Shown piece after piece: positions 833 through 54,587 of a DNA stretch of 61,188 nt. Source of the stretch: an uncultured Gemmatimonadales bacterium. GTDB taxonomy: Bacteria > Gemmatimonadota > Gemmatimonadetes > JACCXV01 > JAHWKZ01. Each line of letters opens with the position of its first letter. Position 1 is the stretch's first letter. The notes beneath the pieces are model-generated. The model saw only the letters and a program-made list of their open reading frames with translations, had not been told where the DNA came from and searched no databases. Position numbers and translations under genes: made by a program. Location of the stretch: the NCBI GenBank assembly GCA_964619975.1, contig CAZUIY010000061.1, positions 1-61,188 on the forward strand, given 5' to 3'.

Positions 833-1489
833 ATGACATCACAAATCAAAGCCGGAAAGGATCGTGTGATCCTGCGCCCAAAAGAACAAGAGAATAAAAG
901 AGAATCCATAGGCCCACACTCTGCTATCAAAACAAAGAGTGGTCTGTATGTTCCCGTTTACGATCAGAACGAGTTCGAACCCGATGTGTGTGATCAATAC
1001 GCATACGTTGTGGCCGTCCCTGAATCAGCCCGTGAACGAGTGGACACCAATAAATGGAGAACCCACGAGATCATTATCAAAGAAGGAGATTTATGCCTTG
1101 TCACACACAGCCTGAGAAAAAGACATTTGAAAATCGGTTGGCCGGACAAAGAATGTATCTCCATTCCATACCACCACATCTACGCCATTGTCAAAGACAA
1201 CAAACTTATTCCCAACGCTTGTCACAATATTTTGGAGCCTATCTTTGTAGGGAAAGAAGAACACACCGATGAATCAGGAGTAGTTGTTCTCAGCACAAGA
1301 ACCAGAAGTGAATCATTTGCCCGGGCAAAATGGATCAGCCAAAGTTTAAAGGACAAAGGAGTGAAGGAAGGAGATATTGTGGGTCTGGCTCCGGATATCA
1401 ACTACGAAGTAAAGTTTCAACAGAAAGAGTACTTTATTGTCGATACGGATTATGTGATGTGCGTGGTTAATCCTGAAATATTTGAATAA
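833..1489 (+). CDS. Tandem (two-domain) GroES/Cpn10-like co-chaperonin
   Basis: Two GroES-like units: DRVILRP..KTKSGLYVP..VVAVP..IKEGDLCLV..IYAIV, and NILEP..TDESGVVV..GVKEGDIVGL..YEVKFQQKEYFIVDTDYVMCVV. Confidence 0.75.
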   Translation: MTSQIKAGKDRVILRPKEQENKRESIGPHSAIKTKSGLYVPVYDQNEFEPDVCDQYAYVVAVPESARERVDTNKWRTHEIIIKEGDLCLVTHSLRKRHLKIGWPDKECISIPYHHIYAIVKDNKLIPNACHNILEPIFVGKEEHTDESGVVVLSTRTRSESFARAKWISQSLKDKGVKEGDIVGLAPDINYEVKFQQKEYFIVDTDYVMCVVNPEIFE

Positions 1490-2435: not shown

Positions 2436-2975
2436 TTGACTGTTAAAGATCGAATAGAAGAAGTTATCTCAAATGGCGCGACAGGCTCTTTCCCCGAGTA
2501 CCACGCCATTTGGGATGATATTCGAAAATCAAGGAAAAAAGTAAACCTTCTGATTTTTGGGGTCGGCCACGACGCATTGCTCTGGAAGGAGTGTAATAAA
2601 ACCGGAAAGACCCTCTTTATTGAAAACAATCCAAAACTGGCCAAGCTTGGAAAAAAGTTAGGATGTCAGGTTTCCGGAACCGCGTACAACAGCAGAAAGC
2701 TATCGAAAGACAAAATCCATCACCCTTCTATCCTGGCTCTGAACTTAGGTAGAGAAGTCGAGAACACCGAATGGACACACATCTTTGTTGACGGACCAAA
2801 ACAAGAATGCCACGGCAGAATCAAGTCTATTTTCAATGCCTCTCGATTGGCAGGGAAAAATACGATGGTCTACGTAAGTAATTACGACAGGAAATCAGAA
2901 AAACTCTACACCGATCATTTCTTAAAAGTCAAAAGTGTAGTTGACCGATTAGCGGTATGTCAAAAACGGACGTAG
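2436..2975 (+). CDS. DUF579 (IRX15/GXM-like) SAM-dependent polysaccharide O-methyltransferase-like protein
   Basis: NLLIFGVGHDALLW..N..GKTLFIE..WTHIFVDGP..GRIKSIFNA..VYVSNYDRKSEK parallels the DUF579 motifs FGLGHDS..W / VF.E / DV.MVD.P / GRM.AI / VFVHD..R..E. Confidence 0.7.
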   Translation: MTVKDRIEEVISNGATGSFPEYHAIWDDIRKSRKKVNLLIFGVGHDALLWKECNKTGKTLFIENNPKLAKLGKKLGCQVSGTAYNSRKLSKDKIHHPSILALNLGREVENTEWTHIFVDGPKQECHGRIKSIFNASRLAGKNTMVYVSNYDRKSEKLYTDHFLKVKSVVDRLAVCQKRT

Positions 2976-3673
2976 TTTACACCATTGGTCGGTCCTGTAA
3001 TTGGGGTGATTTTGATGAACTCCGATACTCTCTACGATCTTTAAGTCTTTTTACCAGTATCGGACAAGTCTTTATAGTAGGACACAAGCCAGAGTGGGTT
3101 CAGAATGTCATTCACTTACCGCTGTCGGATCCATACAAACACAACAAGGATGCGAATCTCAACAACAAGATAGTTCTGGCTTGCTGTGACCAAAGACTGA
3201 GCGATCAATTCATACTCATGTCCGATGATCAGTATTTCCTGCAACAAACATCTACCGGGGAATTACGACCAGTTATAAGCAACAACTCCCACAAGCCAAA
3301 AAGCAAAGATCAGTGGAATCGCAGAATGACCAGAACCCTTAAACATCTCCAAAAGCGCGGACATTCAACAAATGTTTTTGAGGCACACTGTCCTTATTTG
3401 CTTGAAAAGGCAAAATATCCATCGATTGTTTTGGACTATTGCTTTGGTGAATCAGTTGGAATGTGTGGAAACACACTGTACTTCAACACCCTTGGAGTAA
3501 AAGGAGAGCCGAATAAAAACTATGTCACGGGATCAGGACGACTTGCTACACTACAGGAAATCACTAAAAAAGTCAGTGGATTCAGATTTTTAAACATCAA
3601 CCACGGAGTGAACGATGATCAGAAACAATTCCTTCAATCCAGGTTCCCAGAAAAAAGCCAATATGAAATCTAA
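2957..3673 (+). CDS. Stealth-family-like sugar-phosphotransferase
   Basis: DVVYT (CR1-like), DELRYSLRSL..FIV (CR2-like) and FILMSDDQYF (FIL.NDD-like). Confidence 0.65.
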   Translation: MSKTDVVYTIGRSCNWGDFDELRYSLRSLSLFTSIGQVFIVGHKPEWVQNVIHLPLSDPYKHNKDANLNNKIVLACCDQRLSDQFILMSDDQYFLQQTSTGELRPVISNNSHKPKSKDQWNRRMTRTLKHLQKRGHSTNVFEAHCPYLLEKAKYPSIVLDYCFGESVGMCGNTLYFNTLGVKGEPNKNYVTGSGRLATLQEITKKVSGFRFLNINHGVNDDQKQFLQSRFPEKSQYEI

Positions 3674-7202: not shown

Positions 7203-8187
7203 TGATGCTGTTTTTATCTGCTTGCTGACCCAAAATATTAAACCCCTGAACCGAAGATATTATTTGAACATTTATATGAATTGCGTTTGAGAACTTTGAG
7301 GACGATGCCACCATGTAGTAACCACTAGTTTCGACTCGATATGTGTTTCGGGTTGTTCGGGCTATTTCCGTCCACTCGTTATTTTCCAATCGAAACACAG
7401 CCCAATCAGTCAGGGTTTCACCCGTCCAAAACAAGTCAAGCCCTGAATGGGTCAATACTGCAGTAGTGTTCAATGGTTGCTGGCCGCAGATATTGATAGT
7501 CCCCTCACCGAACGATGTAATGGGCCCATATTCCGCGAATCCTGAAATCATAATCACGACTTCAGTGCCGGCAGGAAATGGAAATGTAACCGTCCAATCC
7601 TGTTGCGTGGGGTCGTATGGGTCATTGTACACTGACGGGTATTGCCCGAGATCGTGCCAGTACTGGATTAGCGGAACGGGGTCAGTGCACGGCGAATCGG
7701 TGCAGTTATCAATTGTTGGTGACGTGCCGGGATTACAGATACACCAAACCGGCCAATTAGGACAACTTGAAGCTGCTACCCAATTGGTATTATCACATCC
7801 GCCTACGCCTATCTTCCACAGTAGTCCGTCGTAGGGTCCGTAGTTACCGATATTCCCCGTGCCGGTGCTGTAATTACTCTGAATGTCCATTGCGTAAATA
7901 CCATCTTCAGGCACGGTGAACGCGAAGAATTTAGGCGCGTAGTGAACATTACCGCCGCAGCAAGTCGGGGACGTAGGGTGTTGCAAAACGCACTCAAAAT
8001 GGTTCTCGCAATTATAGTTGTCAAATGCTACGGTTACGCAATTAGATAGGTTTATGGCGGTTTCACAAGTATTGTTCGGGCATTGAGCCGTAGCCGACCT
8101 TACGCAATGTGAAAACATACCCGCCAATATAACCAGCGTTGCCAGCAAATCCACCGACCATTTTGCTCTATTTGAATTTACCATCAC
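7189..8187 (-). CDS. Secreted Cys-rich beta protein with a partial T9SS C-terminal-domain-like tail
   Basis: Signal peptide cleaved before Gln (SATA|QCPNNTCETAINL), multiple Cys pairs, C-terminal FNILGQ. Confidence 0.65.
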   Translation of the reverse strand: MMVNSNRAKWSVDLLATLVILAGMFSHCVRSATAQCPNNTCETAINLSNCVTVAFDNYNCENHFECVLQHPTSPTCCGGNVHYAPKFFAFTVPEDGIYAMDIQSNYSTGTGNIGNYGPYDGLLWKIGVGGCDNTNWVAASSCPNWPVWCICNPGTSPTIDNCTDSPCTDPVPLIQYWHDLGQYPSVYNDPYDPTQQDWTVTFPFPAGTEVVIMISGFAEYGPITSFGEGTINICGQQPLNTTAVLTHSGLDLFWTGETLTDWAVFRLENNEWTEIARTTRNTYRVETSGYYMVASSSKFSNAIHINVQIISSVQGFNILGQQADKNSINENR

Positions 8188-10031
8188 GCGAGTGGATTTA
8201 ATGCTGCGTTAGTACAGGCTTCAATATCAGCTCGATTGGCTTGTACACCCGTCCAAATAGAAGCCATCTGAATGTAGCCTGTGAAAAAACCTGAGGCCGC
8301 GCCTGAATTAAGCATACAACCAAGGCTTAATTGAGTTGTAGATGGATTAAAAAGGTTTCCTGAAATATCCGCAGAGGGGCTTCCGGATGTCAATTGAGTT
8401 AAATTTTTCCACACCTTCATTCTATTTGCTCCCGTCTGTGTTGTGTCGATCTGAAACGATGATATCTGAATCTGGCCATTAACGGAAGTATCGGTATAGG
8501 TTGCGTTTTGAGGGGTTGTTCCGTTGGATGAAAAAGAACCAAAATAGCCGCCAGAGCCATTGCCGATTCGCCATACCCTGCTGTTCGTGCCAAAATCAAA
8601 ATGTCCAGCTATCACTTGTGTGCTGCTTGCTGCGACGTTCTCATTCTGTACGGCAAAACATCCGTATAGAGCGGTGATTCCAGCTCCGAAGTAATCAAAG
8701 TAGGTCATTGTCATAAAATCATCTGTACCGTCAAAATACGGAGCCGGATAACCGTTCTGAGCCACACGGCAATCGCCTGACGAATCAACTATTTCGGGTT
8801 GGCTACCAACGGTCGCCTGAACCCACTCCCTGCCGGTGCCGTCCTGTTGTTTCCAATTCGATACCGTACAGCGTTGACCGCCTGAAAATGTTTCCAATTC
8901 TGTTTTGGAAAGTATGCCATTGATAGCAAGAAAGTCCTGTGTTGTGCTATCGTTTCTGCGCACCGTCATTATTGCGGTGTTCTCATAAGCCAACACCTGA
9001 AGGTTTACACCTGTAGATAGGATGTTATTGGTTGGGTATTTATCAACGATTCCACCGACTGCGAGGTAATCTGTTTTCAATTCCCTACCGCCAATAGATG
9101 CTGTTTCTGCCGCCATTAAACGAACGTCTTTGTGGCCTGCTAAAACAGGTACATAAGATGGGTTTTGCACAAATGAATTTTGATTTACTCCGAATCGCCA
9201 ACACCATGAATCCGGTGTGTGTGTGCTTTCATCTGTGAACGCAACCGTATCACCTACATTTGGAGTTAAGTCGTCTGCTTCGAAGTCTACGGTCATTGCC
9301 GGCAAATCATTGATCACAATTTTACCCGCTCCAAACGTTGCATCTACCAAATCATCATTGGTGTCTACAACTTCAATCTCTACGTTGTCACCATTAATGT
9401 AATTCTGGTTCAGAATCTCACCTGAAAGGGCGTTTATGATGAGGTTTACCCAATCCAAATTAATAGTACCCGTCATTCCACTGACTTGTGTGGTTGAAAC
9501 GTATGGTACTATTCCGTCATCAGGATCTCGTAGAGTGAGATTAATTCCAGATTGAGCGAGAAAAGTTAATGCGGCTGGATTGCCGTTTAGACGAATAAGA
9601 ATATCTATAAATTCAACCACATAAGGATTTGTAGACTCAACGGAAAAAAATCCGACTATCGAACTTCCATCACTCCTTTGCATGATAAAAGCCACAACAT
9701 CACCGTAGGGAGTGGTTCCTTCGTCTTCACCTTGGATGGTTACTGAGGTGGGGTCGCCGCCGCTACCGCCCGGCCCCTTGTAAAGTATAAGCCCACGATG
9801 GTTCAGCCCGAGATTACAGGCTCCGGAACTCATACTTCTTTGTTGTGGTTGTGGAAAATTCTCAGGCTCTTCTTCAGATTCTTCTTCGGACATCAATAAG
9901 TCCGCGGCCTCAGTAGGACTTTCCTGCTCAGATGATTTTTTTTTTTGAGAATCTACGCGGTAGAAATAATAAACAACTCCTGCTATTGCAAGAGTAAACA
10001 GAAGGACGCTATACAGCAGCTCCGAGAACAT
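8184..10031 (-). CDS. Membrane-anchored PKD plus ConA/LamG-like protein (fibre/adhesin-like)
   Basis: N-terminal TM, acidic linker, PKD motif VDFEAD..VGDTVAFTDES..SWCWRFG..QNPSY, and LamG-like PYFDGTDDFM..GFFTGYI. Confidence 0.7.
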   Translation of the reverse strand: MFSELLYSVLLFTLAIAGVVYYFYRVDSQKKKSSEQESPTEAADLLMSEEESEEEPENFPQPQQRSMSSGACNLGLNHRGLILYKGPGGSGGDPTSVTIQGEDEGTTPYGDVVAFIMQRSDGSSIVGFFSVESTNPYVVEFIDILIRLNGNPAALTFLAQSGINLTLRDPDDGIVPYVSTTQVSGMTGTINLDWVNLIINALSGEILNQNYINGDNVEIEVVDTNDDLVDATFGAGKIVINDLPAMTVDFEADDLTPNVGDTVAFTDESTHTPDSWCWRFGVNQNSFVQNPSYVPVLAGHKDVRLMAAETASIGGRELKTDYLAVGGIVDKYPTNNILSTGVNLQVLAYENTAIMTVRRNDSTTQDFLAINGILSKTELETFSGGQRCTVSNWKQQDGTGREWVQATVGSQPEIVDSSGDCRVAQNGYPAPYFDGTDDFMTMTYFDYFGAGITALYGCFAVQNENVAASSTQVIAGHFDFGTNSRVWRIGNGSGGYFGSFSSNGTTPQNATYTDTSVNGQIQISSFQIDTTQTGANRMKVWKNLTQLTSGSPSADISGNLFNPSTTQLSLGCMLNSGAASGFFTGYIQMASIWTGVQANRADIEACTNAALNPLA

Positions 10032-30034: not shown

Positions 30035-30070
30035 ATTTCCGAACGAAGTTGTTAAAAAATGTTAATTCCG

Positions 30071-38156: not shown

Positions 38157-38528
38157 CTACGCATTGTAACTCAATCCGTCACGTGCCTTCCGAAAGACTG
38201 ACAAATTGGGTGATTTGATAATGGCATCATTTAAGTAGGGTCTATTCTCATTTCCGGCAGTCTTACCGCATTTATCAGAAAATGTCACCTCCGGGTTTTC
38301 CGAAATAAAATAAATATGGTCATAGCCTTGCTCCTGTTTACCATCACTACGCTTGACCTCTGCGGTCGCCACGTAATCATTGGTTGTAAGCAAAACATCC
38401 ATTTCAACATCCTGACCGATGTCGATATCAACTACCACTTCTTTTTCGACACTGCCTGTGGTTAGGGCAATGGCTGGGAGGGAAAACATCAGTAATCCGA
38501 CCAGCATTAGATTGAACAATCGTTTCAT
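38157..38528 (-). CDS. Secreted hypothetical protein
   Basis: MKRLFNLMLVGLLMFSLPAIA signal peptide; monocistronic, with a TGTTAA-N4-TGTTAA box at 38563-38578. Confidence 0.7.
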   Translation of the reverse strand: MKRLFNLMLVGLLMFSLPAIALTTGSVEKEVVVDIDIGQDVEMDVLLTTNDYVATAEVKRSDGKQEQGYDHIYFISENPEVTFSDKCGKTAGNENRPYLNDAIIKSPNLSVFRKARDGLSYNA

Positions 38529-38710
38529 GGGTCCTAAATTAATAACAATTTTGGAAAAAGGTTGTTAAACCCTGTTAAAAACAGACACCCCAACCGAGTA
38601 AACGGCTGAGGTGTCTGCTAACCAATCCTCCATTATGAAAAAAATACAGGAGCAATTTAAGCAAATCTGTGGATTCTACAAATCCGGACGCGAAAAATGT
38701 AAGAAACACA

Positions 38711-38740
38711 AAGCCCCAACCGAATGAACGATTGGGGCTT
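38711..38740 (-). terminator. Terminator closing the ncRNA cluster
   Basis: AAGCCCCAA/TTGGGGCTT 9-bp stem followed by a T-rich tail on the - strand. Confidence 0.7.
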
Positions 38741-38752
38741 CTCTGTCGTAGC

Positions 38753-38887
38753 GGGGGCATCCATGTAACGGCATCGCACTTTGTAGCTTTCCACGGCTCC
38801 TTGATCTGAGCCGACTCGGATTCACAGCAGAGGTACGCAGACTGTGTTTCGCAAACCTAACCGCCGTTAGACAGTTTGATAGCCCCC
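38753..38887 (-). ncRNA. Candidate 135-nt structured ncRNA
   Basis: Ends pair (GGGGGC/GCCCCC, ATC/GAT, TAACGGC/GCCGTTA); internal hairpins CACAG/CTGTG and GGCTC/GAGCC; non-coding, between the tRNA-like RNA and the terminator. Confidence 0.55.
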
Positions 38888-38903
38888 TTTTCTGGGTGGT
38901 ATG

Positions 38904-39069
38904 TGGACAGAGTAGGAGTTGAACCTACACCCTACTTTTTACAAGTCGATTAAGCTCGTCAACTTCAATAAGCCAGACAATCAACCTAACTTACATTCAT
39001 TGATTCAGGACGGATCACAGAGGACAAAATGTCTTGTTTCCGCGCGTCTACCAATTCCGCCATCTATCC
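38904..39069 (-). ncRNA. 166-nt tRNA-Leu-like RNA with an expanded anticodon/variable region
   Basis: Acceptor GGATAGA/TCTGTCC+A; Leu-type D arm GCGG-AATTGGTAGA-CGC; T arm GTAGG-TTCAACT-CCTAC; 114 nt between the D and T arms instead of about 30. Confidence 0.8.
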
Positions 39070-39205
39070 ATGTCGGTCTTTCCCGCCGTCACGATTTTTT
39101 ACGACCTCTTGACTTATTGTTTAAGCCGCAATAACCTGTGTCGTCTTGGGTGTGCTCCCTTCGCCCGTCCTGCACACATCGGTTTACTCGGGGTAGGGTA
39201 TGACA

Positions 39206-39251
39206 CAAATATAATCCGGTACGACAAAACCACCAAGTTAAAAACTGTTAA
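39206..39251 (-). promoter_or_regulatory. Promoter of the ncRNA cluster with an inverted tandem box
   Basis: TATATTTG on the - strand at 39206-39213, TTTG upstream; AGTTAA-AAAC-TGTTAA on the + strand at 39236-39251. Confidence 0.65.
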
Positions 39252-39252
39252 C

Positions 39253-39301
39253 AAAAAAAAGACCTCCCAATTTGAGCATTGTGAAGAGGCTTGGGAGGTT
39301 C
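39253..39301 (-). terminator. Intrinsic terminator ending the replication/middle operon
   Basis: ACCTCCCAA/TTGGGAGGT stem plus T8 on the - strand. Confidence 0.75.
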
Positions 39302-39348
39302 TACCTTTTTGCGACAGGTCATCGGTTACCGCGAAGATAGTGTTTTCC

Positions 39349-52781: not shown

Positions 52782-54587
52782 TCAATTCTTGAAATTTGGC
52801 CGCGAACCTTGCACGGCGGGTTCTCCGGTGACGGGGTGGGTGTCGGAGGCGTAGCGATATTCTTGCGTTTGAGTTTTCCAAGGGTAGGAGTGTGTTTTTA
52901 CGTGGTGATCAACCATTCTAGGCTTCATTTCTTTTATGTAGTCACCAACCCACATCATCCTCGGAAACTTGTCAGCTTCCGGTTCCATCTTGCTGTCCTG
53001 CGCGGGTTCGATTATGGTCGCCCATTGGCCGTTCAGGAATAAGAAAACACCTTCTACAGAGACCGTACAGTCATTATCGCTATCACACAACTCAATTTCA
53101 ATATCCAACTCTTCAATAGTTCTATTGTTTCCGCTCCACGTGCTTTCAACCACATCACCAACCTTGTACTTTTTCTCGGTCATTTCGGTCAACATCCGCT
53201 CAACCTCTTTCGGGTTGGCGGGGGTGAGGTCATCGTATTCATGAACAGAAACCCACGGTGAATGAAATTGATTACTATTGTCAAGCCATTCTCCATTAGT
53301 TCGAACTCCATAACCGTGAATTCCCCCCTTGTCGTTTATTGAAGTCGCCATAAACATACCTGTCTCGGAATACTTCCACCACTTCCCAACCCGATCAACT
53401 TTCAGAAGTTCACGGGCTCGGTCGTAGTTGCCGTGAGCAACTTCATTCCAGAACTGGTAGCCTTCATCCTTATCATCCCACTTTCCAATTGCAGCAACAG
53501 CGGCAGGCAAATCTTCAGGGTGCAACGTGTAATATTCGGACGTCTCATCCACCTGCCTCAAAGCCCTTTCCGCAATGTCCTCCGGTAGTGTTTTCAGGAA
53601 GTCGGTGAGAGTGGCGCGGCGACAATGCTCTATACGCACTCCGTTCGGCACCCCTAATTCTGGTCGAGCCCAAGGCTTCTCGTTAATACCTTGGATACTT
53701 ATTTCTTCTATCTTAAAAATTGGTATAAACTCTTCCTTACGAAAATCATCTTCCGATTTGTCAGCGTAAGCCATCATCCCCACCTTCAACTCATCTTCGG
53801 TTGGTTCTAGCTCGTTCAAACAAGAATCTTCTTTTTCTTCTTGTATTCTCCTGTCTTCAAAAGATTCGATAAATATAGGTGTGTCGGATGCGTACTCCCA
53901 AGCACTCAATAGTTTTTCTTTGAAGGTTCCCAATTCATCCGAGTCTTGAAACTCAAAGCCTCCAGTTATCTTCCATTCGACATCAGGTATCCCAACAGAT
54001 TGGTCGCCTGAAAACACAACGTAAAACCCATCAATACTCAACGGTTTTTGTTTTTCTGACCCAAACACAAGGGCGCGGGCTTCGGAGAGGGGGATTTCGG
54101 TGCGGGTTTTCGCATCATAATGCGCTTCACCTGCTATACACCCATACCAAAGCTTCCGTTTGAAATCGAATCCAAAAGACTCCCACCCATCAACCCTAAG
54201 TACTTCATGAATCCGGTTCACCGTATCTCTTTTGTTGTCGCTTTTAATAGCGCGTCCTGATAATTTGTGTTTCACCTGCCCAGTTTTCACATCCGACGAC
54301 TGTTCATTTTCACCCCAAGAAAACTCAACCCAATGCTCTTTACCGTCGAAACACACCACACACTTAATACCGATACCACGAAGAACTTCAAAGTCCTGGT
54401 ACTCATCTTCTGTTGGAGGTTCCGGCGGTGTAGACGCGTAGTAGTACTTCAACGATGTTTTTCCTTCTTTCATAGCCCTCAGTATCGAATCGCATTTATG
54501 CCTTAACCCGCTACGTGTATCGATATCCAGTAACAACGATTCAAGGGACTTCTTGATCTGTTTCTGCGGCTTTTTCTCAGTACTCAT
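52782..54587 (-). CDS. 601-aa multi-domain hypothetical protein
   Basis: First gene of the leftward operon; appears to be a string of short unrelated domains. Confidence 0.75.
   Translation of the reverse strand: MSTEKKPQKQIKKSLESLLLDIDTRSGLRHKCDSILRAMKEGKTSLKYYYASTPPEPPTEDEYQDFEVLRGIGIKCVVCFDGKEHWVEFSWGENEQSSDVKTGQVKHKLSGRAIKSDNKRDTVNRIHEVLRVDGWESFGFDFKRKLWYGCIAGEAHYDAKTRTEIPLSEARALVFGSEKQKPLSIDGFYVVFSGDQSVGIPDVEWKITGGFEFQDSDELGTFKEKLLSAWEYASDTPIFIESFEDRRIQEEKEDSCLNELEPTEDELKVGMMAYADKSEDDFRKEEFIPIFKIEEISIQGINEKPWARPELGVPNGVRIEHCRRATLTDFLKTLPEDIAERALRQVDETSEYYTLHPEDLPAAVAAIGKWDDKDEGYQFWNEVAHGNYDRARELLKVDRVGKWWKYSETGMFMATSINDKGGIHGYGVRTNGEWLDNSNQFHSPWVSVHEYDDLTPANPKEVERMLTEMTEKKYKVGDVVESTWSGNNRTIEELDIEIELCDSDNDCTVSVEGVFLFLNGQWATIIEPAQDSKMEPEADKFPRMMWVGDYIKEMKPRMVDHHVKTHSYPWKTQTQEYRYASDTHPVTGEPAVQGSRPNFKN

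Follow-up and report, generated by a model that had tools for sequence, protein, structure and literature searches.

On the minus strand of the window (the whole stretch of DNA analysed, 61,188 nt), we identified a 135-nt segment that is predicted to fold into a closed, branched rod, preceded by an anticodon-less tRNA-Leu-like RNA and followed by an intrinsic terminator. The reading that we favour, tentatively and at somewhat less than an even chance, is that the rod is a stable RNA derived from a 3' trailer, by analogy kin in kind to RNAD and RNAC of phage T4 or to 3'ETS-leuZ of Escherichia coli, and possibly engaged in counter-defence; we infer that it is transcribed and processed, that it accumulates and what it does. 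The window spans an entire phage contig, whose ends overlap by 71 bp. The phage is a Bacteroidota phage, and its portal is 22-26% identical to the portals of Flavobacterium, Cellulophaga and Maribacter phages.

The structural description in the original prediction is confirmed: both ends, the long-range helix P2 (TAACGGC/GCCGTTA) and the two internal hairpins are all present on the minus strand (Table 1), and the claimed gap of 16 nt after the tRNA-like RNA was borne out. The terminator expected 3' of the rod also exists, 11 nt downstream, but its stem has 13 pairs including G-U instead of the nine that had been reported. In partition functions computed for the rod alone or with local flanks, the closing helix P1 has a pairing probability of 0.97-1.0, hairpin B of about 1.0, hairpin A of about 0.85 and P2 of about 0.64. 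When the 16-nt spacer and the terminator are included, rod and terminator are predicted to fold as separate neighbours.

Table 1. Features of the RNA unit and its surroundings (positions in the window; MFE, minimum free energy)
Feature	Position	Strand	Description	Basis
abiF RNA motif	39262-39298	-	hairpin then T8, end of upstream operon	Rfam RF03085, 54.5 bits (gathering score 37)
Phage regulatory box	39237-39251	-	TTAACAGTTTTTAAC, promoter of the ncRNA operon	genome-wide box count
Box copies	10550, 30051, 38073, 38564, 39237, 46521, 54654, 56194	- at 30051, 38073, 38564, 39237
-7 element	39206-39213	-	TAtaTTTG, Bacteroidota sigma-A type	read from sequence
Leader	39070-39199	-	about 130 nt, 51% GC	fold z -0.17
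Anticodon-less tRNA-Leu-like RNA	38904-39069	-	acceptor stem, D-arm region, T-arm, insert of about 115 nt
Spacer	38888-38903	-	16 nt, single-stranded, A-rich, CAUACCACCCAGAAAA	sequence and fold
Candidate RNA (rod)	38753-38887	-	135 nt, starts GGGGGCTATC, ends GATGCCCCC
Closing helix P1	38878-38887 with 38753-38761	-	6 bp, bulged U (1 nt), 3 bp	MFE fold
Helix P2	38863-38869 with 38766-38772	-	long-range	MFE fold
Hairpin A	38831-38858	-		MFE fold
Hairpin B	38790-38820	-		MFE fold
Intrinsic terminator 1	38710-38741	-	13-bp stem, 6-nt loop, interrupted U-tract	terminator scan
Second hairpin	38582-38617	-	hairpin with U5, read as back-up terminator	sequence; not listed by terminator scan
Next boxed promoter	38564-38578	-	just after the second hairpin	box

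The unit lies in a gap (38529-39348) that is without any ORF with a family match, and a coding role was rejected on the same grounds for the ORFs of the unit. The box at its promoter (TTAACAGNNNTTAAC, one mismatch allowed) has eight copies in the genome against 0.31 expected, and a TAnnTTTG-type element follows 23-26 nt downstream of all four minus-strand copies, exact at three of them and reading TAatTTaG at 38564. Two of these four boxed promoters precede the portal gene and the gene at 38157-38528. The box probably serves as a promoter element, of activator or UP-like type, that is specific to the phage. The -7 consensus is established for Bacteroides promoters; judging from the sequence, transcription would start near 39199. 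Because box and -7 element are common to other phage genes and a terminator stands at its end, the RNA unit has the phage's usual promoter type and gene-like bounds. Co-transcription of the rod with the tRNA-like RNA, which the original prediction had assumed, fits this arrangement of one boxed promoter upstream and one intrinsic terminator behind, with no second promoter seen inside the unit.

The upstream operon ends in the abiF hairpin. Motifs of this kind are the RNA antitoxin of AbiF toxins (bioRxiv 10.1101/2025.04.15.648962), and a six-frame search of the whole bin found no Abi_2 gene in the phage or in the rest of the bin. The hairpin is a candidate phage decoy of the AbiF antitoxin. 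At the other side of the rod, the terminator and the second hairpin stand in tandem on the minus strand, 126 nt apart, share CGGUUGGGG and have similar loops, which on sequence grounds suggests a local duplication; the roughly 90 nt between them, with a small hairpin inside, have no assignment. A riboswitch-type terminator/antiterminator arrangement was considered and rejected: the candidate strands are both C-rich, and further downstream stand a second terminator and then another promoter.

In the tRNA-like RNA, 21 nt of the D-arm region exactly match a tRNA-Leu(CAG) gene from the bin of the phage; ARAGORN called no tRNA at this position. The spacer behind it is the likely site of a putative 3' processing of the tRNA-like RNA, and release of the rod by such tRNA-type processing appears plausible by analogy. 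The rod contains neither a T-loop nor a D-arm motif within its 135 nt, and ARAGORN finds nothing in it, so it is not a second tRNA-type RNA.

The nearest analogies in kind come from T4 and E. coli. In T4, a head-to-tail row on one strand comprises tRNA-Arg, RNAD (119 nt) and RNAC (139 nt), and RNAD and RNAC are real late RNAs whose role is unsolved (PMC3014915; PMC9697503). The rod resembles them in being non-coding, in its size class of 120-140 nt and in its place beside a tRNA or tRNA-like gene in one unit; RNAD (species 2) and RNAC (species 1) are presumably freed by processing of a common precursor. It differs from them in that no similarity was found by sequence or by model (R1, a single-sequence covariance model of the rod, run with filters off), in that the hosts are unrelated, and in that RNAC has a T-arm and is thus itself tRNA-like, whereas the rod has none. 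In the E. coli glyW-cysT-leuZ transcript, the tRNA-Leu trailer 3'ETS-leuZ is active as an RNA (bioRxiv 10.1101/2021.04.25.441314). Like the rod, it lies between the last tRNA of its transcript, also of the tRNA-Leu type, and the terminator, and it is freed by endonuclease processing; unlike the rod, for which a search for antisense targets within the phage found no pairing target, it is a sponge for Hfq-dependent sRNAs. To our knowledge, Bacteroidota lack Hfq.

A comparable layout was seen in MW202828.1, a distantly related podovirus of 60.9 kb whose portal is 25.7% identical. Its locus L258:523-745 encodes, in this order, a tRNA-Leu-like RNA that is missing from the annotation (about 110 nt, with an insert), a structured RNA of 69 nt and a strong terminator; ARAGORN calls neither RNA. 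The second of these (L258:634-702) resembles the rod in following a tRNA-Leu-like RNA, there after about 5 nt, and in preceding a terminator in a Bacteroidota-type podovirus, and both are predicted to have a 5' side of six pairs, an unpaired base and three pairs. Unlike the rod, it is only 69 nt long, has a T-arm and is tRNA-like; the two share no similarity and are not homologous.

The layout at the rod is not a default one. Among 34 insert-bearing tRNA-Leu-type RNAs in an IMG/VR sample, about half have an ORF 11-29 nt after them, and in only a few does a terminator come next, at 50-110 nt; because this sample mostly differs, 135 nt of GC-rich non-coding sequence before a terminator is not what such RNAs usually show. 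About half of the 34 RNAs longer than 91 nt that were found with the tRNA-Leu D-arm (L014-L131, IMG/VR) precede an ATG-led ORF of 47-188 codons, and tRNA-Leu-type RNAs of this sort may often be the 5' punctuation of a protein gene.

On the reading as a trailer-derived stable RNA, the 135-nt segment would form the folded 3' part of a phage transcription unit without genes, which host RNA polymerase would start at the boxed Bacteroidota-type promoter and end at the intrinsic terminator. During 3' maturation of the tRNA-Leu-like RNA, a cut of RNase Z or RNase E type in the A-rich spacer would free the downstream piece. The 9-bp P1 clamp on the 5' side and the terminator hairpin on the 3' side could then protect it from exonucleases, and with its ends protected it would build up as a separate RNA species of about 135-190 nt. 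It might act as a decoy that binds protein or RNA during host takeover or in counter-defence, a guess that we make because the rod sits in an RNA-only island beside an orphan abiF hairpin and an anticodon-less tRNA mimic. The island as such may serve counter-defence, for which the abiF hairpin and the lack of an Abi_2 gene in the bin give a hint. In its strongest form, the idea joins rod, tRNA-Leu mimic and abiF hairpin into a counter-defence island of about 800 nt made of RNA only, in which each RNA would counter a different RNA-targeting or RNA-sensing defence of the host; we consider this form improbable.

The energy of the fold bears on the main competitor of this reading. The rod has an MFE of -46.5 kcal/mol (z -1.72 and -1.64), 5% of dinucleotide shuffles fold as well, and its ensemble diversity is no better than that of shuffles. 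Since the plus strand folds about equally well (MFE -43.1, z -1.97), energy does not tell the strands apart. In calibration, the tRNA-like neighbour scores a z of -1.92 and T4 RNAD about -0.83, and because the experimentally known RNAD also scores weakly, a weak z decides neither way. Thermodynamics alone is weak evidence for the rod, and the contrast with the phage's own DNA is more unusual: among 4071 windows of 135 nt drawn from this phage, the rod ranks within the top 1.2% for GC content (54.8%, against 43.7% for the phage genome), within the lowest 0.5% for raw MFE and, once MFE is corrected for GC, at the 2.7th percentile. The segment could instead be a passive 3' trailer, that is, a spacer whose fold arose by chance or serves to stabilise the precursor or aid termination, and which is degraded after processing with no role of its own. 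We regard this as possible, if less probable than a stable product. The modest z and the equal folding of the opposite strand agree with it, as does the finding of neither a family match nor a homologue in the collections searched, and in equilibrium predictions for the whole 500-nt transcript the rod vanishes in favour of long-range pairings. Against an idle trailer stand the rarity of 135 nt of idle sequence in tightly packed phage genomes, a GC content 11 points over the genome mean together with the extreme raw stability, and P1, which spans almost exactly the interval from spacer to terminator. The full-length folds also raise a cis-acting alternative, in which the rod would belong to a larger RNA and control folding or maturation of the tRNA-like RNA by base-pairing with its 5' half or with the leader: rod positions 46-75 are predicted to pair with the acceptor/D-arm region (39046-39074) and positions 116-123 with the leader (39085-39092). 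These same folds break the cloverleaf of the tRNA-like RNA, which has family-level support, and the duplex energy has a z of only -0.77 against shuffles, with a local pairing score below the mean of shuffles and of other genome windows, so that we hold a cis element to be unlikely. A regulatory switch made by pairing of rod and tRNA-like RNA was rejected as well, their complementarity being no better than chance.

Searches against known RNA families gave no Rfam match to the rod at the gathering score or at E<=10, with the whole window, a 1.2-kb piece or an isolated 171-nt stretch as query; only the abiF hairpin was matched. As far as covariance models can tell, the rod thus lies outside 6S, 6S-Flavo, SRP RNA, Y RNA, pRNA, abiF and the known ribozymes. 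The original prediction had raised a 6S-like decoy, which would imitate an open promoter and in this way bind the RNA polymerase holoenzyme of the host. As in 6S (RF00013) and 6S-Flavo (RF01685), the terminal helix is closed and the centre partly unpaired, with unpaired stretches at rod positions 58-67 and 99-115, and the phage promoters are of host type. The idea presumes a phage that would lack an RNA polymerase of its own; two ORFs of 2125 aa and 1462 aa, both without a functional assignment, gave no polymerase match. The check proposed at the time left the decoy without support: the 171-nt stretch matched none of the 6S, 6S-Flavo, SRP and Y RNA models even at E<=10, and the centre is predicted to be a multi-branch junction with two stable hairpins (0.85-1.0) in place of the large open bubble of 6S. 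Its 135 nt also place the rod between the 6S-Flavo and 6S models, which have 108 and 187 positions, and we judge a 6S-like function very unlikely. We give still less credence to a packaging RNA of the phi29 pRNA type that would dock on the portal. The rod adjoins the portal gene, in the slot held by the large terminase in related phages (the terminase lies directly upstream of the portal in both nearest GenBank phages, L252:1734-3980 and L253:1319-3955), and this slot is here occupied by the RNA island and a 123-aa gene. No large terminase was recognised by Pfam or PHROGs in the scanned ORFs of at least 180 aa, and tblastn queries with the terminases of both these GenBank phages found none either. 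The predicted 5'/3' helix with a branched junction would also suit a pRNA, as would an internal-loop ACUGU that could pair with ACAGU in the hairpin A loop. However, Rfam lists no pRNA match, a 5-nt loop complementarity is expected by chance, a phi29-type ATPase was not seen, and the relatives' terminases are likewise without Pfam matches, so a divergent terminase may have gone unrecognised.

The unassigned large ORFs, such as those at 52782-54587 and 8184-10031, may conceal such a terminase, or else the 71-bp overlap may be a sign that the contig was closed wrongly. Elsewhere in the phage, a GroES-like (Cpn10) gene is encoded at 833-1489 (plus strand), and a gene of this kind adjoins the terminase in Maribacter phage Panino. 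It is followed on the plus strand by a GXM-type methyltransferase-like ORF (2436-2975) and a Stealth CR2-like ORF (2957-3673). Three other identities were tried for the rod and rejected. An abiF antitoxin RNA (RF03085) was dismissed, as the rod is unmatched at E<=10 and only 39262-39298 matches. For an HDV-like or theta ribozyme, the descriptor scan for a nested P1-P3 pseudoknot returned one weak G-U-rich match in the rod and none at the 3' end of the tRNA-like RNA, with no Rfam ribozyme. No similarity of the rod to any host sequence or repeat was found.

The search for relatives of the rod covered phages, host-side genomes and metagenomes. No homologue was found in GenBank phages (blastn with the 821-nt gap), in the phage's own bin, the family and order of that bin and 400 genomes of its class, or in 250 further loci (nhmmer and blastn). 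Among the matches listed for JGI metagenomes and GTDB genomes there was no homologue, and among those listed for portal-guided loci in IMG/VR there were only portals at 24-26% identity; low-complexity peptide patterns filled or nearly filled the listings for IMG/VR, metagenomes and GTDB, where relatives may thus have escaped notice. Pattern searches at the DNA level for hairpin B and for T-arm plus acceptor retrieved no homologue, and a P1-strand pattern gave two matches only, both by chance and in coding DNA. R1 likewise matched nothing in the window, in T4, in the records of five relatives or in phage loci totalling 0.93 Mb. Portal relatives at 44-53% identity do occur in ENA, JGI and Logan data (P0002-P0005, P0008-P0015) and are not among the IMG/VR or GTDB matches listed. 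The rod is for now an orphan candidate RNA, of modest interest until relatives or transcripts appear.

If the segment is a trailer only, interest shifts to the tRNA-like RNA and the abiF hairpin beside it. If it is a real RNA, it would be the third in a gene-free island of a Bacteroidota phage and would carry the puzzle posed by RNAC and RNAD over to a group of phages unrelated to T4, and the unit, with one promoter, three RNAs and one terminator, would provide a compact test system for phage tRNA-linked RNAs.
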